A DNA stretch of 35,452 bases from Eubacteriales bacterium (lineage in GTDB: Bacteria > Bacillota > Clostridia > Christensenellales > CALMFG01), in contig JBFLKV010000202.1 in NCBI GenBank assembly GCA_040883365.1, positions 1-35,452 of the forward strand, written 5' to 3'. The notes under the pieces are model-generated. The model was given only the letters and a program-made list of their open reading frames with translations, did no database searches and was not told the DNA's origin. Position 1 is the stretch's first letter. The number at the start of each line of letters is the position of its first letter. A program made the translations under genes and the position numbers. Shown piece after piece: positions 7,865 through 35,452 of the stretch.

Positions 7865-8758
7865 CTAAACACTGGATGCATCCACAGCATCCTCACGTAA
7901 AGGATCGGTTATGTCGTAATACTTGCCTTTTACACGATCATGAATCGGGTCGATCAGCTCGGGTGTCTCGATGCCTTTGGGGCTGCCGTTAACCACTTCC
8001 ACCGTTGTCCCTAATGGACAGTTCATATATATCCAGTAAGCCGCGCCAGTATAGGTGCGCATGCATCCCGCCGTGGCATTCGTTCCGATTTCTTTATAGG
8101 TGTTGCCAAACATACTGTCGAAATCCATAAATTCGTAGACCGGGCCGTGCATATAGATGCCATCAGTAAACCGAGACACATAAGGCGAATAGGAATAGGC
8201 TCTTTTGTCTCCTGCCGAATCGAACTGCTTCCATTCATACTTTTCAACAATTGCGAATGTACCAGTCGGGGTTTTTCCTGCGGTAAGACCCGTTGCTGTC
8301 AAGAACTGCTTGACCAATGTATTGTATTCGCCGTTTTCATCCATCTCGTAAACATTGATGGTATGAGAGCCCTTTTCGATATAGATATAATAGGGCGAGG
8401 GCAAGGGTTCAACGCCTGTCACATCAGACGCTTTAACATATCCTGTTGTGCCGTTCACCTTCACTTCGTGCCATTCAGTGCCCGCCGCAATCAACTCCGC
8501 TTCGGTACCCGCTGTCAGCGTTCCAATCACATCGTATTCGCTGGTAGACGTGATAATGATCGGTTCACTCACCCATTCGGTATCCGCCGCGATCTCAATC
8601 ATCGTCACTTCCGGTTCAGGTACGGGCGTTGCCGCTACTGCTTCAGATACAACGGGTTCAGTTGTGGGCGTCACTGCGACCGAATCTTCCTTGTTGCCGC
8701 AAGCCGCTAATGTCAATATGAGACCAAGCGCTAAAACTGCGCTAACCATTCTTTTCAT
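7865..8758 (-). CDS. L,D-transpeptidase (YkuD) family lipoprotein with SH3b-like domain
   Basis: Lipobox LTLAAC; SH3b-like WHEVKVNGTTGYVKASDV; YkuD core TPTGTF...YMHGPVY...TAGCMRT (His / Cys-x-Arg catalytic signature). Confidence 0.82.
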   Translation of the reverse strand: MKRMVSAVLALGLILTLAACGNKEDSVAVTPTTEPVVSEAVAATPVPEPEVTMIEIAADTEWVSEPIIITSTSEYDVIGTLTAGTEAELIAAGTEWHEVKVNGTTGYVKASDVTGVEPLPSPYYIYIEKGSHTINVYEMDENGEYNTLVKQFLTATGLTAGKTPTGTFAIVEKYEWKQFDSAGDKRAYSYSPYVSRFTDGIYMHGPVYEFMDFDSMFGNTYKEIGTNATAGCMRTYTGAAYWIYMNCPLGTTVEVVNGSPKGIETPELIDPIHDRVKGKYYDITDPLREDAVDASSV

Positions 8759-8896
8759 TGTTTTGTTTCCTTATCTTTATAAGTATGTATCGTTCAATTA
8801 GTTTATTCTATTTTGCCCTAAAATAATTGTCAAGGGTTTTGGTGGGTGTGGCCCATCGTTCACAAAGCGTTTATAATTTGTTCTGCCCTCGTTTTC

Positions 8897-8925
8897 TTGA
8901 CGAACTTTATTACATATAGTATATT
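8897..8925 (+). promoter_or_regulatory. putative sigma-A promoter (TTGACG-17nt-TATATT)
   Basis: TTGACG at 8897-8902 and TATATT at 8920-8925, just upstream of the GAGG-ATG 8942 start. Confidence 0.5.
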
Positions 8926-8941
8926 TCTTTTGAGGTACAGC

Positions 8942-10057
8942 ATGAAAAAAAACAAATTAAAATCCAGCTACGTGTCATCGCGCCCACAACCGTTGGTGAA
9001 AAGTAGCTACCGCTCCAATAGTTTACACAAATACTCCCCCAAAGCCCGGTTGACCCGCCTTATCATCACACTGGCTATCATTTTTGCGGCGTTTTTCACG
9101 GTGCTGGCTTTGGTGGTTTTCCCAAAAATCAATATTGGCAAACAAGAGGAGAGTGTGGTGGTGGCTTTGCCCACGCCCGACCCGACGCCCAACCCGTACA
9201 GTGCGCTGATAATGCCCGACGATATCGAATATGTTGAAGATATGGCTTCTTGGGTCAAGACCGATGTCTACGACCAGCCTGTCGAACTCAAACGCGCGGC
9301 TTCAGAGAGCAGCGATACCCTGATGACGCTGGTGGACCGTGAGAATGTCATCGTTAAAGGCATATCCGGCGATTGGTCATTGGTGCTGTACAACCGCCAA
9401 TATGGTTTTATCAAAACCAAAGTGATTTATCAGGGGGCCATCCCTGCCGTGCCTGAGGTAATCAACGAGGTGTTGGTGACCGACCTTATTTCGGGCATTA
9501 ATAAAAAGTCTCAGCTTGTCAATGTACAAGAAGTGGTGCCCGGCATCACTGTGGATTTGCAACTGGCGAATGAAGAAAATTATCTTGGCACAAAAATATA
9601 TCCGGTTTCTATCGCTTTGCTTCAAAAGCAAACGGCGGCCAAGCTAAAAGAAGCGCAAGCGCTTTTCAATCAAGACGGTTACACCATCGTGCTTTGGGAC
9701 GCCTATTGCCCCTATTCAACTACATTAGAAATCGAAGAACTTTTCGGCGGTACAAGTGAACTGATTGAACCCGCTTCCAGAGGTTCTAGGAATAATCGTG
9801 GTACCAGCGTGGACATCACCATCGCCAAAAAAGACGGCACACCGGTTGTCATGCCTTCGGACGGTATGACCTTAAATGAAGAATTGGCGGCGCGGGTTTT
9901 CAGCACCATGACCGAAGAAGCCAAAGCCAATGTGAAATACATGTCATCCATCATGCGAAGAGCGGGCTTTATCACCAGCGATGCAGAATGGTGGCACTTT
10001 GATGACGCCGACTGGCAGTACTATCCCGTGATGGACTACGACCTGTTTGATTTTTAA
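8942..10057 (+). CDS. membrane-anchored SH3b + VanX-like (M15 D-Ala-D-Ala dipeptidase family) protein with atypical active-site residues
   Basis: ATG 8942 is preceded by GAGG; the track start at GTG 8846 would read through the promoter. TM LIITLAIIFAAFFTVLALVVF. SH3b-like GDWSLVLYNRQYGFIKTKV. VanX-like VDLQLANEENYLGTKIY, WDAYCP, GSRNNRGTSVDITI and EWWHFD. Confidence 0.75.
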   Translation: MKKNKLKSSYVSSRPQPLVKSSYRSNSLHKYSPKARLTRLIITLAIIFAAFFTVLALVVFPKINIGKQEESVVVALPTPDPTPNPYSALIMPDDIEYVEDMASWVKTDVYDQPVELKRAASESSDTLMTLVDRENVIVKGISGDWSLVLYNRQYGFIKTKVIYQGAIPAVPEVINEVLVTDLISGINKKSQLVNVQEVVPGITVDLQLANEENYLGTKIYPVSIALLQKQTAAKLKEAQALFNQDGYTIVLWDAYCPYSTTLEIEELFGGTSELIEPASRGSRNNRGTSVDITIAKKDGTPVVMPSDGMTLNEELAARVFSTMTEEAKANVKYMSSIMRRAGFITSDAEWWHFDDADWQYYPVMDYDLFDF

Positions 10058-22142: not shown

Positions 22143-25100
22143 TTAGATGCTAATGTCTCCACCATCATCCATATTCGGTGATTTGTTCATAGAACGCTTA
22201 ACCAGCAAGAATACGATGCCAATCAGCAGTATCACCGCAAATACTATCATTACAATCAGTATGGTTGGGAACCCTGACGAACTGTCGTTTTCGACCGGTG
22301 CGGGTGTATCGGTTGGTTCTTCTGTTGCTGTAGGCTTGACGGTCACTGCTCGTGTCATCAGAATTCTTCCCAAAGAATTACTGCTAAACTGCAATGTACG
22401 TGAGTTGCTGTCATATTGATAACTCACCGCCATCAGCTCACCGCTTGTACCGTCTTCAACAAATAGTCCAATATCCGACAAGCTATCCGCATCTTCAATC
22501 TCGGCTGCCAATTTTGAATCCAGCATGATGGATACGCTAATTGCTTTGTCATAAGATTTTTGGATACCCGATAAGCCATTCTCTGTGTTGTAACCAATAT
22601 AGGTTTCTGCCGCATAAATGACTTCACGATCACTGCCCAACGTTTCCTCTGCATCGGTGATGTCGTCCTCTTCCAAAATCGATTTCGAAATAATGTAATC
22701 TACCACATCATCATCTACAAGGTCTGTGGTGAAAGACGCTGGTTGAATGACCATCTTATAGTTATCCAGTGTCAAGATCAGTCCAACATCCTGATTGAAC
22801 GCAGATTGAACCGCCGCTCCGTCTAACATCACTTTGACACTCTGCTGAGCATCTACCGAATTGGCTTTCGGGAAGCTGACATATGGATGTGCTAAGATAC
22901 CATCCGAACCATCGCCCTCTTCAATTTTTTTCTTTGCCAACGCGTTGGTAATAGCATCTAAGAAAGCATCATCGTCAACTATCAAGACAGCAGTTGTTCC
23001 ATCACGTTCAGCTTCAGTATCTTTCAAAAGAACGTCTTCAATGACATCAACTTCTCTGGTAGGATTAACGACTTCAGACGTATCATTGTCATCATCGTCA
23101 TTGTCATTATCATTATTATCGCCGTCATCATCGTTATCGTCGTTATCGTCGTTGTCATCGTTATCGTCATCATCATCGTCGTCATCGTCATCATTATCAC
23201 CAGAACCACTGGTAGATGTGCTCGATTTTCGTGTGACCGTTACCGTATATGTTTTAGTTGTTGTGTCATCATCTGCTGTAACGACTAATTTCAATGTATT
23301 CGTGCCCACTTTAAGATTCTTCCAACCCGTACCTTTAACGGATGCATAATCGTCGTTAGGCTCGCCCCAGAAAGTAAACCCTTTTGTGGAATAAGGTACT
23401 GTTATTGAGTAATACCTATCGTCCGGGTCAAATCCTGAAATCTCCTTGCCGTCTATGGTGATATTGTCCAAGGTCGCATCACGCAAATAGCCCCTAAATA
23501 TGGTGATATAGTATCTGCGTACCGTTCCAGTTGGACCTACACATTTTACCCTAAAGTCATTTCCACCACGAACCAATGTTTTTGTGCCTGTACCTGTCAC
23601 GATTGTAGAGGAATTAAACGGTGTGCCGCCAATGGTGACACTAGTAGTGGTCGATGCCAGTTTTGTGACATACTCGTAGTTGAGATATGCAAAATTATCA
23701 ATCGTTGCGCCATCCAGCGTCAAATTCCTCAAATGCGGCCATGTTGATAGCGGACGCACAATCGTTACGCGATATGATTTCTTTGTGGTTCCGTCTGCCG
23801 CAGTAACAGTGATATAGTGCAGGTTCTCACCAGCATTAACCGAAAAAGTACCCGTTCCTGTCACTGTCGCGCCGATGACATTGGGAGTCGCCGCAATGGT
23901 TGCGGTGGTATCATCATAGTCTACATAACCGTAATAATAGATTTTATCCGAATCAAAATCGGTCAGCGATGTCCCATTCACCTTGATATCACTCAAAGTC
24001 GCATCGTTGGATCCTGTTCGTGTTATGGTCAATAAATAGTTTTGGGTTTCAGTGCCATCCGAAGACGTGACTGTAATAGTAAATACATTGGCTCCGGCAC
24101 TAAGCGTTTTAGTCCCCGTGCCTGTCACAGTTGCTCCAGCATCAGCCGGATAAGCCCCAATCGTCACAGTCGGTGTCGTTACGGACGCTGCATAGCTATA
24201 TTTATCCATAGCAAAACCAGCTACCGTCACCCCATCAATCGTAAGGTCAAGCAAATCAGCATTCGAATCTGCTTCTATAATGACTATGGAATATGTTTTT
24301 GTTGTGGTTCCGTCTGATGCCGTAACGATAACGTCGGTTGTTGTTAGGCCTAGTGCACTCAATGTAACCGTACCGGTTCCAGAAATGGTTGCCGAAGCAT
24401 CTTCAGCTGTAGCCCCAACCGTAACCGAGCTTGTGCCCGCCGCTACGCCTGCAAAATACGCGGTTGTATCTGGATCAAAAAGCCACACGGTTTCGCCGTT
24501 TACTGTCAAATCGGAGAGATTCGCGTTGGTACTTGTTGACACTGATTCTCGTGTTATCGTCACCGTATAGGTCGCAGTTGTTGTGCCGTCCTGTGCCGTT
24601 ACTAGAATAGTAAAGACATTTGCACCCTCAGACAGCGCATAAGACGCTGCAGCCGCAGCCCCGTTTATCGTATAAGTCGCATATGTATCCGTTGGCGTTA
24701 CCGCGAGTACGGCCGTCGATATGCTATTGCTGACTGTCTGCGCATAGCTGTATGTGGTCGCAGCAAATCCTGACACGGTCGAACCGTTGACTTGTAGACC
24801 CGAAAGCGATGCATCCGAGCTCGGATATGAAGCAGTAATCGTATAGTCTTGTGAAACACCGTCTGATGACTGACATGTCACCGTAAAGGGCGATCCGGTC
24901 AGCGCCAGGCTGGTTCCGGTTCCGCTGGTTACAGTTGCGCCGGTTTCTGGTGTTGCCGCAATATCTACAGTGGTATACGAACCATCCGCTAGGAAAGTAT
25001 ATGCAAATGTGCCCGAATCAAACGTCGGGGTCAGTGTAATCGCGCTACCCCCGCCACCTTCGGAAAGCGTCAGTGCACTCAGCTGATTCGTGGTCTGCCT

Positions 25101-26432
25101 GTATGCATGAACTGTATATGTTGTTGTTGCATTGACAACCACTGCAATGTCTTGCGTGCTACCCGCCGTTAAGCTGATAGCGCCGGATGCCGCACCGCTG
25201 GTCACCGTCGTGCCATCCACAGTAATGGCGGCACCACTGTCAATCGCCGTGGGGGTCACGGTAATCGAATCGTTTTCAAACGGTACCGTCAAAGTGTATT
25301 CTAAATCCTCCGGGTCGAACGCTGAGTCCAACGTTCCTGCCGAGAATCCCAAATTGTTTAAATAATTAGCGGACGTCGTGGTCATTGCCGCATCCATATA
25401 ATAAGGAACATAATCCACTGTACCTGCACCGACGATATTAAAGGTATCTGATATATCGGTGGCACTGGTTAAGTTCCAATAGTTATTCTCAAAACCAAGG
25501 GTTGCAGTTGAATAGGAATCAATGTTGTATCCGCCCGCCGCAATGTTAAAATCACATCCGGACGCAGATGCCGTTGTCCCGTTTTCACTGGTGGACATGC
25601 CTAAAGCCACATTGATAAAGTTATTGGAAAAGTCGGTGTTTGTAATTGTAATATCTGTGGTTGCAGGCGCACCGCTAGATGTCGCACCGACAACAGCCGT
25701 TGAGGCATAGATGGTCGGTGTACCGCTACAGTCCACAATGCTAGAGTTAGCCAGCGTGAGTTGAACGCCATCCACCACTTCTATCGCATAGTCGATTTGA
25801 TCGGCTATATCCTTACCGGTATAGCTAAGTCCGTCAATATCCAGCGTGGTTGAACTTCCGGCCACAGCTGCGCTGGCGTAGATACCAAAACGCCCGATAT
25901 TACTCATGGTTAGATTGGTAAGACTGGTGTCAGCCAAAGCATAAATGCCGATAACCGACGCCGTTGAATGAGAAATGTTCTGCACCGTCGCATCTGCCAC
26001 CGTTAAAGGTGCCGCCGCATTGATGGCGCGCTGAACATCATATGTACTGCCCGAGCCATCCAGCGTCACGTCATTGATTTCAACCCCACTGACCGTATCG
26101 GGGATGTCAATCATATAATTAAGCGCTGAACCCGCTTCAATGGTTGTAGAAGCAGCACCCGCACCTTGAATGACTAGCGCCTTATCAATGGTTACGGTTG
26201 ATGTGATGGTGTAGGTACCCGCAGACAAACTGAGAATATCCCCGTCCACCACAGTCGCATCCGCGATAGCCGTTGCGATATCTGAGTAATCTCCGCCACT
26301 ACCGCCATCCGGGTCCACCGTATAGGTCGCCGCAAAAGCCGTAATAGGTAAAAAGGCAGCTAGGCATATTAGCGCAAACGCCAAAAATGCATACAAGCCA
26401 ACCTTCGTATTGTGTTTCGATAAACTATTCAT
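22143..26432 (-). CDS. 1429-aa cell-surface protein: signal peptide, right-handed beta-helix region, ~8 cadherin-like beta-sandwich repeats, poly-Asp/Asn tract, unassigned ~270-aa region, Thr/Pro stalk, C-terminal TM anchor
   Basis: GGGGG SD. Signal peptide LYAFLAFALICLAAFLPITAFA. Thr/Ser/Gly-rich beta-helix-like segment at aa ~35-350. Repeats recur about every 90 aa, each starting LSxLxvnG...F....Y.Y (aa ~357-1068). C-terminal TM FPTILIVMIVFAVILLIGIVFLLV followed by KRS. No LPXTG motif. Confidence 0.8.
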   Translation of the reverse strand: MNSLSKHNTKVGLYAFLAFALICLAAFLPITAFAATYTVDPDGGSGGDYSDIATAIADATVVDGDILSLSAGTYTITSTVTIDKALVIQGAGAASTTIEAGSALNYMIDIPDTVSGVEINDVTLDGSGSTYDVQRAINAAAPLTVADATVQNISHSTASVIGIYALADTSLTNLTMSNIGRFGIYASAAVAGSSTTLDIDGLSYTGKDIADQIDYAIEVVDGVQLTLANSSIVDCSGTPTIYASTAVVGATSSGAPATTDITITNTDFSNNFINVALGMSTSENGTTASASGCDFNIAAGGYNIDSYSTATLGFENNYWNLTSATDISDTFNIVGAGTVDYVPYYMDAAMTTTSANYLNNLGFSAGTLDSAFDPEDLEYTLTVPFENDSITVTPTAIDSGAAITVDGTTVTSGAASGAISLTAGSTQDIAVVVNATTTYTVHAYRQTTNQLSALTLSEGGGGSAITLTPTFDSGTFAYTFLADGSYTTVDIAATPETGATVTSGTGTSLALTGSPFTVTCQSSDGVSQDYTITASYPSSDASLSGLQVNGSTVSGFAATTYSYAQTVSNSISTAVLAVTPTDTYATYTINGAAAAASYALSEGANVFTILVTAQDGTTTATYTVTITRESVSTSTNANLSDLTVNGETVWLFDPDTTAYFAGVAAGTSSVTVGATAEDASATISGTGTVTLSALGLTTTDVIVTASDGTTTKTYSIVIIEADSNADLLDLTIDGVTVAGFAMDKYSYAASVTTPTVTIGAYPADAGATVTGTGTKTLSAGANVFTITVTSSDGTETQNYLLTITRTGSNDATLSDIKVNGTSLTDFDSDKIYYYGYVDYDDTTATIAATPNVIGATVTGTGTFSVNAGENLHYITVTAADGTTKKSYRVTIVRPLSTWPHLRNLTLDGATIDNFAYLNYEYVTKLASTTTSVTIGGTPFNSSTIVTGTGTKTLVRGGNDFRVKCVGPTGTVRRYYITIFRGYLRDATLDNITIDGKEISGFDPDDRYYSITVPYSTKGFTFWGEPNDDYASVKGTGWKNLKVGTNTLKLVVTADDDTTTKTYTVTVTRKSSTSTSGSGDNDDDDDDDDDDNDDNDDNDDNDDDGDNNDNDNDDDDNDTSEVVNPTREVDVIEDVLLKDTEAERDGTTAVLIVDDDAFLDAITNALAKKKIEEGDGSDGILAHPYVSFPKANSVDAQQSVKVMLDGAAVQSAFNQDVGLILTLDNYKMVIQPASFTTDLVDDDVVDYIISKSILEEDDITDAEETLGSDREVIYAAETYIGYNTENGLSGIQKSYDKAISVSIMLDSKLAAEIEDADSLSDIGLFVEDGTSGELMAVSYQYDSNSRTLQFSSNSLGRILMTRAVTVKPTATEEPTDTPAPVENDSSSGFPTILIVMIVFAVILLIGIVFLLVKRSMNKSPNMDDGGDISI
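23085..23198 (-). repeat. low-complexity GAT/GAC/AAT codon tract encoding a 38-aa poly-Asp/Asn linker
   Basis: It encodes DNDDDDDDDDDDNDDNDDNDDNDDDGDNNDNDNDDDDND. It contains four tandem 9-bp units at 23132-23167 (CGTTATCGT x2, CGTTGTCAT, CGTTATCGT on the plus strand). Confidence 0.9.
23229..25367 (-). repeat. array of ~8 diverged cadherin-like beta-sandwich domain repeats (protein-level repeat, ~270 nt period)
   Basis: Repeat starts are at aa ~357 YLNNLGFSAG, 451 LSALTLSEG, 542 LSGLQVNG, 638 LSDLTVNG, 727 LLDLTIDG, 812 LSDIKVNG, 901 LRNLTLDG and 987 LDNITIDG. Each ends ...Y.(V/I)T(I/V).R. Confidence 0.7.
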
Positions 26433-32302: not shown

Positions 32303-32632
32303 CTAAAGCTCGGTTAAATAATCCATGCCAAAAGACACCACCAAAAGCAGCCCATCATCATCACCATAAATATTAAACTTAGTCGCCAGTTCCTCCTTGT
32401 CGCGATAGTGGCATCGGTCATAAAACGCCTTCTCCCAACTTTGGGTATCATAAACACCTGATTGACGGCGATAAACCTGATTGACCGGATATCGCTCGGC
32501 AATATACGACACCACGCGCTGGTTCTCCATCTCACTTAATATCTTCCATGTGGGCTCGAATGCATGCCGAGAAACCAGCCCCAGCACTTCCATCATAAAT
32601 TCCTTTAATCCATAAAAACCGCTGTACACCAT
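32303..32632 (-). CDS. hypothetical protein (109 aa), no recognisable family
   Basis: A strong SD (AAGGAAGG) lies 8 nt upstream of ATG 32632. It is flanked by a terminator upstream and a stem-loop downstream, so it looks monocistronic. Confidence 0.6.
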   Translation of the reverse strand: MVYSGFYGLKEFMMEVLGLVSRHAFEPTWKILSEMENQRVVSYIAERYPVNQVYRRQSGVYDTQSWEKAFYDRCHYRDKEELATKFNIYGDDDGLLLVVSFGMDYLTEL

Positions 32633-32690
32633 TTTTTGCGCCTTCCTTTTTTCTTACATTCTAAACAAATAGGCGTCCCAAAAAGGGTAC

Positions 32691-32725
32691 AAAAAAAGCA
32701 AAGGCGAATTCACCCTTGCTTTTTT
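32691..32725. terminator. rho-independent terminator closing the CotH-VTC-DUF4956 operon
   Basis: AAAAAAA-GCAAAGG-CGAATTCA-CCCTTGC-TTTTTT, with one mismatch in the stem and A/T runs on both sides. Confidence 0.7.
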
Positions 32726-32747
32726 GTAACTGTTTATATCTGGCTAG

Positions 32748-33425
32748 TTACCCTACCACATCGCCGGCATAGGATATAAGCGAAGCATCATTGACGCCGT
32801 GAATGTCCGCAATGGTTTCCACCACCGCAAAATCGGCTTCACGAACACTCATTTCAATGGTCAGCTCAATAAGCCCATTGGACACGGTCTTGGATTTTAG
32901 ATTGCCCTGTGGTAGCTTTCTCAGCGCATTCTGCACTTCGGTTTTTGCATCTTTGGTAAAGGACAAAATCAAAAGATACGGACGATCTTTCTTGAACTTA
33001 AACATGGAAAGAATCAGCATCAGCGCCGCAATCACCAAAACGCCAAGCCCCGCCATAGCATACTGTCTGGCGCCCAGGGTCAGGCCGGTGGCAATGCCCC
33101 AAAACATGAAAATGGTATCCATCGGCTCTTTGACCGCTGTTCTGAAACGGACGATGGACAACGCACCCACCGCACCCAAGGACAGCACCACGTTGGTGGA
33201 GATGGGCATAATAATCATGGCCGTAACCATGGTGATCATAATCAGCGATGCCGCAAAGTTTTTAGAAAACATCACGCCGCTGAACGTACGCTTATAAACC
33301 CAGTAGACGATTAGTCCGCAAACAAAGCTTAAAGCCAAAGTCAGCAGAACCGACTGAATGCTTAGATCAGATGATAGAGAAAAATCCTCTAAGACACTAT
33401 TTTTAATGACATCTTGTGTAGACAT
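32748..33425 (-). CDS. DUF4956 family integral membrane protein
   Basis: 4-5 TM segments. Hallmark LSLGAVGALSIVRFRTAVKEPMDTIFMFWGIATGL. C-terminal soluble ~75 aa. Confidence 0.8.
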   Translation of the reverse strand: MSTQDVIKNSVLEDFSLSSDLSIQSVLLTLALSFVCGLIVYWVYKRTFSGVMFSKNFAASLIMITMVTAMIIMPISTNVVLSLGAVGALSIVRFRTAVKEPMDTIFMFWGIATGLTLGARQYAMAGLGVLVIAALMLILSMFKFKKDRPYLLILSFTKDAKTEVQNALRKLPQGNLKSKTVSNGLIELTIEMSVREADFAVVETIADIHGVNDASLISYAGDVVG

Positions 33426-33469
33426 AAAACTTCACCATTTCCTTCTTTAAAATTATATCATTTTATTAT

Positions 33470-34960
33470 TTACGCTTCATACTTGCGGCACAACGCATAT
33501 TTAGATATGGCCGAGCGTTGAGACGCTTTCGCGTTGTTTAAAACTGCAATCAGATAATCCGGCAAACCGTGCTGGAACTTGACTTCCATCACCACCATAC
33601 CCGGCTTTAATACCGTCGCCAGCGGCACTTTATCGTCAAACATATCCGTCGCGTTTCGACCGGTTTTTACCGTCTTATCAAAAGTTATGCGCAAGTTTTT
33701 AATGGGATGCACATAAGCTTCGCGGACATAGTCGACAATCACCATGGGTTTTAGTCTCTTGGTCTTCACCTCATAGTAAAAATCTTTTGCCAGCTGATTA
33801 TTCTTCTTTAAAAGAAAACCAAGATCCTCTGCAATAATTTTTTCATACTCAGCCCGGGTCAGTCGTAAGCTGTCCTTGCTGATATAGTCTTTATCCTTGT
33901 TTTTGCGTTCCAGACGAATCATATCGTCCTTTAAGCCATATATGCGAATACGGTACTTTTTGCGCTTTTCCACGCCCGCCAGTTTTTCCACTAGCGCCGA
34001 ATTTTTAAAATCATCAAAATACAAAGATCGTATATAATAGTCGCCGTCTTCGCCCGCATTTTCATCATGCTTAAGCAAGCGATTTAGCTGAGCTGAAAGC
34101 AATTGATAATCCGCCTCTGAGATATAGTACTTAAGCTCATGGCGATAGACTTTCTCGGAGTCCGCCCGCAGCGAACGACTGGCTCGTGAAGGCGTCCTCG
34201 GTGCTAACGGCTTTTTCTCCCCTGCCGCTTCTAACGATCGGATGTGCACATCCTGCGCCTCCGCTTGCGCTGCCAGCGTTGCATCGTCATACTTGGGTTT
34301 TTCTTGCCCTTTGGTACGGAGCATGGGCCGAATGGTTTCCAGCGCTTCGGTATTGTCGTCTTCCCTCTTTTTGGGCGCTTCTACTATATCCTTGGCCAAA
34401 AGTGCTTTTAGCGCTTCTTTATCCAGTGTATCCGTTTTTTTCGGCTGCGGTTCTGGTTTCGACTTTTTCACCAGCTTAGCTTTTTCGCGCACGATGACCG
34501 GCGTTTCCACCAAATCCTCAAACAGTGCATCTCGCTTTTTCAGTTCCAGCGTCTGCTCTAATGGCTTTTCGCCTTTCTTGGTAATCACCACCTTGGGCGC
34601 ATCACTGCGCTCCACCGCAATCAGCGGCTCATCAGTTTCCACCTTGGGCTGTGGCTTTTCTTTCTGCCGATTCAACGCCTCGGGTTTAAACTCTGTTTTG
34701 CCTTTTTTCACTTGAATACGGGGTTTCTCAGCAAAGCCTTTTTCCTGCCATAGCTGCTCTTTTCGCGCCTTGGCTTCGGCCTTCTTTTTCCGCTCTTCCT
34801 CAAGCATCGCCTCAATATGCGCCTGGGCTTCGGCATGCCGTTCTTCCGCTTTTTGGGCGCGGCGCTCTGCACGCGCTTCAGGCGAATCCTGTGCCTTATC
34901 AGCCCGTTTTTTCTTAAAATAGCTGGATGATTTTATATCGATATCTTTCTTTTTTGCCAT
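33470..34960 (-). CDS. VTC-domain (polyphosphate-polymerase-like, triphosphate-tunnel) protein with ~270-aa Lys/Glu-rich N-terminal extension
   Basis: C-terminal 226 aa: YRHELKYYIS...YYIRSLYFDDF...RKKYRIRIYG...RLERKNKD...VMEVKF (VTC/CYTH-like strand pattern). The N-terminus is low-complexity K/E/A/P-rich. Confidence 0.8.
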   Translation of the reverse strand: MAKKKDIDIKSSSYFKKKRADKAQDSPEARAERRAQKAEERHAEAQAHIEAMLEEERKKKAEAKARKEQLWQEKGFAEKPRIQVKKGKTEFKPEALNRQKEKPQPKVETDEPLIAVERSDAPKVVITKKGEKPLEQTLELKKRDALFEDLVETPVIVREKAKLVKKSKPEPQPKKTDTLDKEALKALLAKDIVEAPKKREDDNTEALETIRPMLRTKGQEKPKYDDATLAAQAEAQDVHIRSLEAAGEKKPLAPRTPSRASRSLRADSEKVYRHELKYYISEADYQLLSAQLNRLLKHDENAGEDGDYYIRSLYFDDFKNSALVEKLAGVEKRKKYRIRIYGLKDDMIRLERKNKDKDYISKDSLRLTRAEYEKIIAEDLGFLLKKNNQLAKDFYYEVKTKRLKPMVIVDYVREAYVHPIKNLRITFDKTVKTGRNATDMFDDKVPLATVLKPGMVVMEVKFQHGLPDYLIAVLNNAKASQRSAISKYALCRKYEA

Positions 34961-34963
34961 CGT

Positions 34964-35452
34964 CTATTTCCAGTCTCCAAATAATTCTTGCATCCGTTCA
35001 TCCGATATATCGAGTTCTTGTTGCAAATACAATTTTGCATAATACGGCCGATTTTCCAAAAAGGTTTGCATCATGTTAATCTGCGTATTAAAGTTGTTGG
35101 ACCAGTTGAATATATCACACTCATGTTGTACCTCCGGCTCTATATTTGCCGCAAGCTCCAACATGTAAGGCAAAGCTACCTCTGGGTCAAACACTTCATT
35201 GATATAGTAGGCATAGCGCTCGATAAACTCCTCGCGCCATGTGTCATTTTCCATAAGTCCTCTTGCGATAGACGTTGAAAACGCATTTCCTGAGCCCGTT
35301 CCTCCCGGGTTTAGTACTTCTTCCAAGTAATTATTTTTATATCTCACATTACTGCTGGTTATCCACATACCCCAATCCAAGTCATACAGAATCCAGCGCC
35401 ATAAGCCATCATCGGTACGCACCCGGTAGAACTTGCGGTTTCCGTCATCCGA
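34964..35452 (-). CDS. CotH kinase family protein, C-terminal part (5' end beyond the window)
   Basis: The frame stays open to the window edge: ...FYRVRTDDGLWRWILYDLDWGMW...FIERYAYYINEVF..., typical of the CotH C-terminal lobe. The stop lies 3 nt from the VTC gene start. Confidence 0.78.
   Translation of the reverse strand, partial: SDDGNRKFYRVRTDDGLWRWILYDLDWGMWITSSNVRYKNNYLEEVLNPGGTGSGNAFSTSIARGLMENDTWREEFIERYAYYINEVFDPEVALPYMLELAANIEPEVQHECDIFNWSNNFNTQINMMQTFLENRPYYAKLYLQQELDISDERMQELFGDWK

Follow-up and report, generated by a model that had tools for sequence, protein, structure and literature searches.

The last 2.7 kb of a 35,452-nucleotide contig from a Eubacteriales bacterium of the Christensenellales (GenBank JBFLKV010000202.1; the "window" is this whole stretch) contains three co-directional open reading frames (ORFs) on the minus strand, which were located from an ORF list and by reading the letters. 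They encode the C-terminal end of a CotH-family kinase, a protein with a VTC domain, and a DUF4956 membrane protein. Related loci were surveyed, and the VTC–DUF4956 pair is the core of a conserved module. From its conserved residues and predicted structure, the VTC protein is judged with good confidence to be an active phosphotransferase of the type represented by yeast Vtc4. The working of the whole is a more tentative matter: at a little under an even chance, the three genes would constitute an envelope module that synthesises polyphosphate at the membrane and delivers it outward to the partner at the surface. Vtc4-like genes are widespread in prokaryotes, occurring in at least 587 species genomes (common human-gut Clostridia included), where they are tied to an MgtC-like membrane protein and usually also to a surface CotH or lamin-tail protein.

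The features of the locus are as follows.

34964..35452, minus strand: 3′ end of the cotH-family gene (last 162 codons plus TAG), encoding the kinase C-lobe; open to the window edge
33470..34960, minus strand: VTC gene, 496 aa; its ATG is 3 nt past the CotH TAG stop
34151..34960, minus strand: N-terminal extension of the VTC protein, ~270 aa, rich in K, E, R, A and P; Pfam-blank and lineage-specific
33488..34144, minus strand: putative VTC (Vtc4-like triphosphate-tunnel) catalytic domain, aa 273–491, by Pfam VTC
33426..33469, minus strand: 44-nt intergenic spacer with a GGTGA ribosome-binding site before the DUF4956 ATG
32748..33425, minus strand: DUF4956 gene, 225 aa; its ATG is 44 nt past the VTC TAA stop
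33000–33359, minus strand: MgtC-like five-helix membrane domain of DUF4956, aa 23–142, as predicted by an AlphaFold2 (AF2) model
32772–32978, minus strand: ACT-like beta-alpha-beta-beta-alpha-beta domain of DUF4956, aa 150–218, predicted to be cytoplasmic, by AF2 model and Foldseek
32681..32728, minus strand: intrinsic terminator, a GC-rich hairpin (32728..32688) plus U-run, by RNA folding

An earlier interpretation of the letters (the "sequence-only reading") had assigned the three families, the operon layout and the terminator, and all of these assignments stood. Each family call exceeded the curated Pfam cut-off: CotH scored 50.3 bits against 23.8 (E = 3.3e-13; profile positions 197–321 of 322, from the 162-aa fragment in the window), VTC 135.1 bits against 23 (E = 3.8e-39; aa 273–491, profile positions 2–230 of 235), and DUF4956 39 bits against 30.6 (aa 37–177), a family that 51 of 51 aligned homologues also match. 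NCBIfam gave zero matches for the CotH fragment, the VTC protein or the DUF4956 protein, an exact-protein look-up found no record of the 496-aa VTC protein, and Rfam scans of the 3′ part of the window and of the orthologous promoter region returned nothing. The genes are separated by 3 nt and 44 nt, as read from the sequence. Folding of 32680..32750 on the minus strand gave a terminator hairpin of −20.8 kcal/mol (z = −3.94), and none of 200 shuffled sequences was as stable; a simple consensus terminator scanner had missed this hairpin due to a bulge. The base composition of the region is unremarkable.

The VTC-domain protein

A profile made from 24 VTC sequences was searched against the Protein Data Bank (PDB), and yeast Vtc4 was its sole match (E = 1e-6). 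Residues R273, K277, R337, R339, K353, Y411, R413, R424, E459, K461 and K487 of the domain are invariant. Profile alignment gave the following correspondences.

Vtc4 R196, K200: R273, K277 of this protein (alignment to 3g3q, 8i6v)
Vtc4 R264, R266: R337, R339 (alignment to 3g3q, 8i6v)
Vtc4 K281: K353 (alignment to 3g3q, 8i6v)
Vtc4 Y359, R361: Y411, R413 (profile alignment)
Vtc4 R373: R424 (profile alignment)
Vtc4 E426: E459 (alignment to 3g3q, 8i6v)

The equivalents of Vtc4 K200, R264, R266, K281, Y359, R361, R373 and E426 are invariant in sets of 24 and of 51 homologues. A Vtc4 R264A/R266A/E426N triple mutant yields a catalytically impaired VTC (PMC9911596). Loss of the basic and acidic catalytic residues of the tunnel had been named in the sequence-only reading as a point that would count against it; they are kept, with the counterparts of K200, R264, R266, K281 and E426 all invariant and the fold nearest to that of Vtc4. 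The invariant K487, in an S-K-Y motif, lies 28 residues past E459, and Vtc4 K458 lies 32 residues past E426, with a 4-residue insertion seen in Vtc4. The lysine at the K458 position is replaced in the inactive Vtc2/3 subunits. A profile of the VTC C-terminal 53 aa was also searched against the PDB to place K458, and returned a spurious match only.

The AF2 model of the VTC domain (predicted local distance difference test, pLDDT, 90.1; predicted template modelling score, pTM, 0.86) has eight or more long strands. The top 12 Foldseek matches to this model are all Vtc4 or Vtc3, with E from 4e-13 to 2e-11; the best are the Vtc4 structures 3g3r, 3g3q and 5iiq (E ~4e-13, TM-score normalised to the query, TMq, 0.70), followed by Vtc3 and Vtc2. 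Tunnel enzymes of the hydrolase type come far behind, with E. coli ygiF at 1e-8 and other triphosphate tunnel metalloenzymes (TTMs) at 1e-6 or weaker. Homologues carry the NCBI label "polyphosphate polymerase domain-containing protein".

These values bear on a reading in which the VTC protein is a hydrolase or another kind of TTM (a ygiF-like tripolyphosphatase, a nucleotide cyclase or a polyphosphate degrader) and the module serves to import and use up polyphosphate from outside. A version of the operon from a diderm lineage, described below, encodes a phytase-like beta-propeller and a porin of the O/P family. In Pseudomonas, members of this porin family serve for the uptake of phosphate or polyphosphate. 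Weak CYTH-family scores occur in some VTC homologues, and most of the prokaryotic TTM/CYTH enzymes characterised to date are hydrolases (PMC4641920). We consider such a function quite improbable: both sequence and fold are nearer to Vtc4 (E 4e-13) than to ygiF or other hydrolase TTMs (1e-8 or weaker), and all residues of the Vtc4 set are retained, the lysine placed at K458 by spacing among them.

The VTC domain is confined to aa 273–491 of the 496 aa and is the sole Pfam match of the protein; an SPX domain was not found, and none of 65 VTC homologues has a segment resembling a transmembrane (TM) helix. The first ~270 aa form a lysine/glutamate-rich extension (17% K, 13% E, 13% A, also rich in P; net charge +14) in which no tandem repeat and no Pfam match was detected. 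This extension is conserved in frame in two close relatives (loci L002 and L003, 76–81% identity over the whole protein); in L005, L006 and L015 it has diverged and is shorter. VTC proteins of the Christensenellales range from 290 to 498 aa, many being 290–415 aa; the extension varies in length there and is absent elsewhere. It might act as a tether, bind polyanions as a tail, or have a regulatory role. Note that in the relative L082 the VTC gene (8422–9955) is present as two overlapping ORFs of 288 aa and 240 aa, probably due to a frameshift in that assembly or because the gene is a pseudogene there.

The eukaryotic VTC complex (Vtc4/Vtc3 or Vtc2/Vtc1; 7ytj, 8i6v, 3g3q) resembles the present module in its Vtc4-type tunnel domain, its key residues and its fold, which is the nearest known. 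It also pairs the polymerase with a dedicated membrane partner, a likeness that suggests membrane-coupled synthesis here. The two differ in that the eukaryotic complex has an SPX sensor, where the protein described here has the K/E-rich extension, and in that it has a three-helix TM domain and Vtc1 subunit, where the partner here is predicted to combine five MgtC-like helices with an ACT-like domain. Unlike the eukaryotic complex, the module has an additional extracytoplasmic CotH/LTD protein (LTD, lamin-tail domain), and its target would be the cell exterior, not the vacuole. The likeness to PPK1 and PPK2 is limited to the presumed product, polyphosphate from a nucleoside triphosphate; those enzymes have unrelated folds, show no sequence kinship, are cytoplasmic, and have no dedicated membrane or surface partner.

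The membrane protein and the surface partner

In the AF2 model of DUF4956 (pLDDT 74), five helices (aa 23–142) are followed by a beta-alpha-beta-beta-alpha-beta domain (aa 150–218). Foldseek matched the latter to the C-terminal domain of Mycobacterium tuberculosis MgtC (2lqj; TM-score normalised to the target, TMt, 0.60) and to the ACT domains 2ko1 and 3ibw. Weak Pfam matches (whole-protein E ≤ 5) to MgtC were found in 30 of 51 DUF4956 homologues (best E 9.4e-5) and to NapD in 38 of the 51, the protein in the window itself having no MgtC match; some databases give homologues the name YhiD. On this evidence DUF4956 is modelled as an MgtC-like membrane domain joined to an ACT-like domain. The MgtC/SapB/YhiD family (PF02308; 2lqj) has the same five helices and cytoplasmic ACT-like domain, and a similar glycine-rich helix and R-x-x-T...W signature. 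It differs in acting by binding proteins (F-ATPase, PhoR) and in having no link to a TTM enzyme, and the DUF4956 profile match to it is weak.

A single block is conserved universally among 153 DUF4956 sequences (LSLGMVGALSI-RFRT--KDP-D--F-FW---G---G, aa 81–118); it spans helices 3 and 4 together with the short turn that joins them. DUF4956 has an acidic N-terminus, with a KFKKDR cluster after helix 5. Judging from this distribution of charge, the protein probably has its N-terminus outside and its C-terminus inside, a topology that would place its conserved basic residues at the cytoplasmic face. The sequence-only reading held that a tunnel enzyme encoded beside a membrane partner mirrors the eukaryotic VTC logic. 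As an analogy this holds; homology of the membrane parts fails, DUF4956 being MgtC-like and ACT-like by prediction. A role as a Vtc1-like channel subunit was rejected in view of the weak MgtC and NapD relatives and the lack of a Foldseek match to the VTC channel.

For the CotH protein, of which the window holds only the end, the architecture was taken from full-length orthologues in the close relatives L082, L003 and L002 (1,034–1,065 aa). These have, in order, an N-terminal TM anchor (MRKDTAVQILSIIIVIVLAIGVAIYFF), three LTDs, a Fn3_assoc/CHB_HEX_C_1 region and the C-terminal CotH kinase domain; a full orthologue scores 119 bits against Pfam CotH, covering profile positions 2–320 of 322. A hydrophobic N-terminal anchor or signal is present in 62 of 68 CotH/LTD partners. 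The proposal that CotH may act at the cell surface is therefore reasonable, as the protein is extracytoplasmic in relatives. A role in the spore coat was discarded on the basis of the TM anchor, the extracellular LTD and Fn3_assoc domains, and the occurrence in archaea.

Bacillus cereus CotH (5jd9) has its catalytic Asp, D224, in an N-x-D motif and its metal-binding Asp, D247, in W-D-Y-D, 23 residues apart; D228 and D251 of B. subtilis CotH have the same spacing. The catalytic and metal-binding roles of the two residues are from PMC7821199. The N-F-D and W-D-Y-D motifs of 5jd9 align to N-M-D and W-D-Y-N of a CotH from a Paenibacillus operon, and the clostridial group that includes the window protein retains N-(T/S)-D-x-x-N and Y-D-(F/L/M)-(C/D)-W. 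The fragment in the window starts S-D-D-G-N and contains Y-D-L-D-W. Both catalytic aspartates thus appear to be retained in the window protein, by a mapping that is indirect and runs through the Paenibacillus CotH. The CotH protein described here has no detectable direct sequence match to 5jd9: the orthologous domain found no match in the PDB by phmmer, and a CotH profile, whose alignment held LTD regions from archaeal and "MF1" proteins, found nothing there, whereas the Paenibacillus-type operon CotH does match 5jd9. Bacillus spore-coat CotH (5jd9/5jda) belongs to the same Pfam family (PF08757) and shares the two catalytic aspartates. The protein here differs in being membrane-anchored, outward-facing and fused to LTD and Fn3-associated domains, and in occurring in non-sporulating Christensenellales and in archaea.

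Kinase-only and LTD-only profiles were built separately and checked with Pfam so that CotH could be told from LTD-only proteins. The third component varies. In Clostridia it combines LTD and CotH, in Paenibacillaceae it is a CotH that lacks LTD, and in several archaea and an unclassified diderm lineage it is an LTD-only protein with no kinase domain. The kinase is not universal. Binding of polyphosphate by the LTD through electrostatic attraction is not favoured, as L072, one LTD-only protein that was read, is visibly acidic.

Conservation of the locus and earlier descriptions

Two scans were made. In the first, 80 species-level loci were found by their VTC domain (mostly metagenome-assembled genomes, MAGs, of Clostridia; also Paenibacillaceae and several archaeal lineages), and their ORFs were clustered and searched with profiles, using a limit of 9 kb for partners. 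The second was seeded from a distant member and examined 80 loci among at least 587 confirmed relatives, using module-specific profiles only. Genes were called by a crude longest-ORF method. About 7 loci are common to both scans, giving roughly 150 distinct loci.

All three partner types were present within 9 kb in 72 of the 80 loci of the first scan. The order CotH–VTC–DUF4956, which is that of the window, accounted for 54 of them, with VTC–DUF4956–partner in 10 and DUF4956–partner–VTC in 8 (archaea). VTC and DUF4956 are adjacent in 75/80 and 77/80 loci of the first and second scans, respectively. Among the 8 loci without an adjacent DUF4956, 7 are contigs that end beside the gene, and only L053, one of the five such loci in the first scan, has room and yet no DUF4956. 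A CotH and/or LTD partner was found at 68 of the 80 second-scan loci, which also include some VTC–DUF4956 pairs with neither; overall, the extracytoplasmic partner is co-operonic in ~140/160 loci. The median gap is −4 nt from CotH to VTC (47 loci), an overlap of stop and start codons, and 27 nt from VTC to DUF4956 (49 loci). Co-occurrence of the three families, on which the sequence-only reading had staked its proposal, is therefore non-random.

These counts dispose of most of the case for a trivial explanation, in which the adjacency is due to chance, or the VTC ORF is mis-annotated and its N-terminal half is separate or spurious. The calling of the L082 gene as 288-aa and 240-aa ORFs would favour mis-annotation. 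Chance adjacency is refuted by synteny over ~150 loci in Bacillota, other bacterial phyla and archaea, and the VTC gene is a single open frame of 487–498 aa in the window, L002 and L003, so that the split in L082 looks confined to its assembly. We regard the trivial explanation as barely credible.

The module takes several forms. In the diderm lineage (L055, L071 and L073; also L083 and L131), the operon consists of an unknown 209-aa gene, a phosphate-selective porin O/P (E = 3e-63), VTC, DUF4956, a beta-propeller (SdiA-regulated type, weakly phytase-like) and an LTD-only protein, and covers the region from ~2 kb before VTC to 4 kb after it; a large CotH+LTD gene lies on the opposite strand a few kb away. 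Archaeal loci (L035, L050, L061, L064, L066 and L072, from Bathyarchaeia, Methanomethylicus and others) have the order DUF4956, LTD protein, VTC. The partner in archaea is often an LTD-only protein of 226–245 aa that lacks a kinase and has a signal peptide as well as a C-terminal anchor. Archaeal VTC domains are 45–49% identical to that of the window, which suggests that the module was transferred between domains.

An alpha/beta-hydrolase gene (Abhydrolase_1, 320–436 aa) lies near cotH in 18 of the 80 first-scan loci (L008, L009, L013, L014, L019, L027, L074, L163 and others), mostly directly upstream and on the same strand, and may be an optional fourth component. When all ORFs of the first 80 loci were clustered, no recurrent neighbour was found beyond this alpha/beta hydrolase, an ABC transporter, a metallo-beta-lactamase (MBL)-fold protein and housekeeping genes. 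Two VTC–DUF4956 copies on different contigs were seen in L061/L089 (the same MAG), L068/L144 (Cohnella mopanensis) and L104/L130 (Gorillibacterium). Clostridium perfringens NELoc-2 likewise has a duplicated VTC–membrane gene pair (PMC2879425).

The sequence-only reading had taken the trio to be undescribed, and in this it was mistaken. Gram-positive pel clusters carry an accessory group made up of cotH, a poly-phosphate polymerase gene, DUF4956 and DUF4832 (Whitfield et al., bioRxiv 10.1101/768473; PMC7112168), and in Streptococci, Clostridia and Bifidobacteria the trio adjoins pelDEA(DA)FG (10.1101/768473). In Streptococcus intermedius, SIR_1594–1591 encode a secreted CotH, a polyphosphate-polymerase-domain protein and an "MgtC TM + ACT" protein, and deletion of the DUF4956 or CotH gene altered Pel levels and halved aggregation in sputum medium (mBio 2025, PMC12345266). 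C. perfringens NELoc-2 carries the trio beside a chitin-synthase-like glycosyltransferase (PMC2879425). The authors of PMC12345266 did not find synteny of the trio outside Pel loci, a statement contradicted by the stand-alone loci recovered here (~150, L002–L162). Reviews of polyphosphate describe VTC as eukaryote-only and PPK1/PPK2 as the prokaryotic route (PMC10657179, PMC12526157).

The Pel accessory set and the present locus both have an operon of these three families, in which the CotH is secreted or anchored and the membrane protein is of the MgtC-like TM plus ACT type. They differ in that no pel gene and no DUF4832 lies nearby here and a Ppx/GppA gene is the divergent neighbour, and in that the CotH has three lamin-tail domains, not an FN3 tail, and the VTC protein has its ~270-aa extension. 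No pel genes were seen in the Pfam-annotated flanks of the window, of its close relatives and of a common gut species. Membership of a Pel locus was accordingly rejected, there being no pel genes and no DUF4832 hydrolase in the flanks; the locus is a stand-alone, non-Pel variant of a gene set that has been noticed but not explained in the literature.

The published loci raise the possibility that the module modifies an exopolysaccharide or cell-wall polymer, with the VTC protein giving a phosphoryl or pyrophosphoryl group to a glycan encoded elsewhere instead of making a long polymer. Contiguity with pelDEA(DA)FG, the change in Pel amount and aggregation in S. intermedius mutants, the glycosyltransferase beside the NELoc-2 trio, and the carbohydrate-associated CHB_HEX_C_1/Fn3_assoc domains of CotH orthologues would all fit. 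The survey speaks the other way, as the first 80 loci have no recurrent pel-like neighbour family and no glycosyltransferase was present among the neighbour families that were scanned with Pfam. In addition, the operon in the window and closest relatives is bordered by Rnf, Maf and Ppx genes at one end and by MBL, glyoxalase and HcyBio genes at the other. Modification of a glycan is rather unlikely in our estimation.

Proposed function and genomic flanks

In the mechanism that we propose, the cytoplasmic VTC protein would work at the membrane and would most likely build inorganic polyphosphate from ATP. DUF4956, probably as an oligomer, would receive the nascent chain at the inner face of the membrane, the location predicted for its basic, conserved RFRT-x-x-K motif, and would either pass the chain across the membrane or control its passage. 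At the cell surface, the anchored CotH protein, with its three LTDs and kinase domain, would act on or with the exported polymer. It may take polyphosphate as its phosphoryl donor, which is proposed because ATP is not available outside the cell. The identity of the product as polyphosphate, and both the substrate and the donor of CotH, are presumed in this scheme.

The steps differ in strength. That VTC and DUF4956 are functionally coupled is likely; that the polymer is delivered outward is possible, though not what we would expect on balance; and that CotH uses the polymer lies between doubtful and improbable. The most explicit version, in which a VTC-type machine threads polyphosphate out through an oligomeric MgtC-family protein and thereby fuels a surface CotH kinase, is improbable as a whole. 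In favour of an envelope module that makes polyphosphate and hands it outward, we count the identity of the VTC protein, its catalytic residues and Vtc4 fold, the VTC–DUF4956 adjacency, the localisation of the proteins and the CotH aspartates. The phosphate-themed neighbours (Ppx/GppA and, in diderms, porin O/P) and the surface-polymer phenotypes of S. intermedius were counted on the same side.

Several observations weigh against it. Confidence in the membrane part of the DUF4956 model is only moderate (pLDDT 74), Foldseek of DUF4956 against the VTC channel chains 7ytj and 8i6v gave no match, and the known role of MgtC-family proteins is that of regulators and not of channels. The core can do without the kinase, because some lineages have an LTD-only partner or none, and the LTD-only partner L072 is, by eye, visibly rich in Asp and Glu. 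K487 is paired with Vtc4 K458 by spacing alone, and the Ppx/GppA adjacency was seen in the closest relatives only. We know of no protein-kinase-fold enzyme that uses polyphosphate as donor. Deletion of the VTC gene in S. intermedius gave no aggregation phenotype, unlike deletion of either neighbour (PMC12345266), and no biochemical characterisation of a prokaryotic VTC-domain protein was found in the literature searched.

Some of these points would suit an intracellular polyphosphate synthase, an alternative to PPK1/PPK2 for which DUF4956 is a tether or regulator with an ACT-like domain that senses a metabolite, and to which CotH/LTD is mechanistically unrelated and merely co-regulated. Proteins related to MgtC regulate phosphate and ATP homeostasis (cited in PMC12345266), an ACT-like domain is predicted in DUF4956, the Ppx/GppA gene that adjoins the operon in close relatives encodes a cytoplasmic protein, and VTC–DUF4956 pairs without CotH or LTD occur. 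We judge this explanation unlikely. It leaves unaccounted for both the co-operonic extracytoplasmic partner (~140/160 loci, with a median gap of −4 nt to VTC) and the phosphate-selective outer-membrane porin of the diderm operon. Moreover, VTC-type synthesis free in the cytosol and without translocation is, in yeast, an artificial situation only.

If polyphosphate is indeed made and exported by the module, prokaryotes would have a third route to polyphosphate. The fuelling of an extracellular kinase would then be explained, the MgtC superfamily would gain a concrete biochemical role, and the unexplained accessory genes at Pel loci of streptococcal and clostridial pathogens would be accounted for. 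In bacteria and archaea, the module would also be the first supply line dedicated to extracellular phosphorylation, and its VTC protein a candidate for the prokaryotic ancestor of the eukaryotic VTC catalytic subunit. A CotH fuelled by polyphosphate would be the first polyphosphate-driven enzyme of the protein-kinase fold. A positive result would surprise the polyphosphate field, and the module is easy to test with a three-gene construct.

The surroundings of the operon were compared with those in three close relatives of 88–95% identity; L082 was reached through a 95%-identical DUF4956, and L003 and L002 (88–89%) by genome scan. In all three, cotH is the first gene of the operon, and a gene for a Ppx/GppA-family phosphatase is divergent from it, followed by maf and the rnf operon. 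The positions are given below.

L082 4023–4931 (minus strand), L003 4807–5814, L002 1408–2418: Ppx/GppA-family phosphatase gene, placed by synteny just past the window edge

The sequence-only reading placed the upstream part of the operon outside the window. By synteny, what lies outside is only the N-terminal ~870 aa of CotH; the 5′ part of cotH is missing from the window, and further operon genes are not.

Downstream, synteny with the window is kept in 3/3 relatives, with a 109-aa ORF followed by MBL-fold, glyoxalase and HcyBio genes. Neither Pfam nor NCBIfam gave a match for the 109-aa ORF (32303–32632, minus strand), which comes right after the terminator; it is kept only in the closest relatives (L001, L082) and is outside the conserved module. 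By the genome scan, the organism is Christensenellaceae-like. The remainder of the window is ordinary chromosome (ftsH, tilS, hpt, dnaX, argJ). At 22143–26432 (minus strand), it also encodes a probable large surface adhesin of 1,429 aa that contains six cadherin-like beta-sandwich repeats; the corresponding region of L082 is broken up into several small cadherin-like ORFs.

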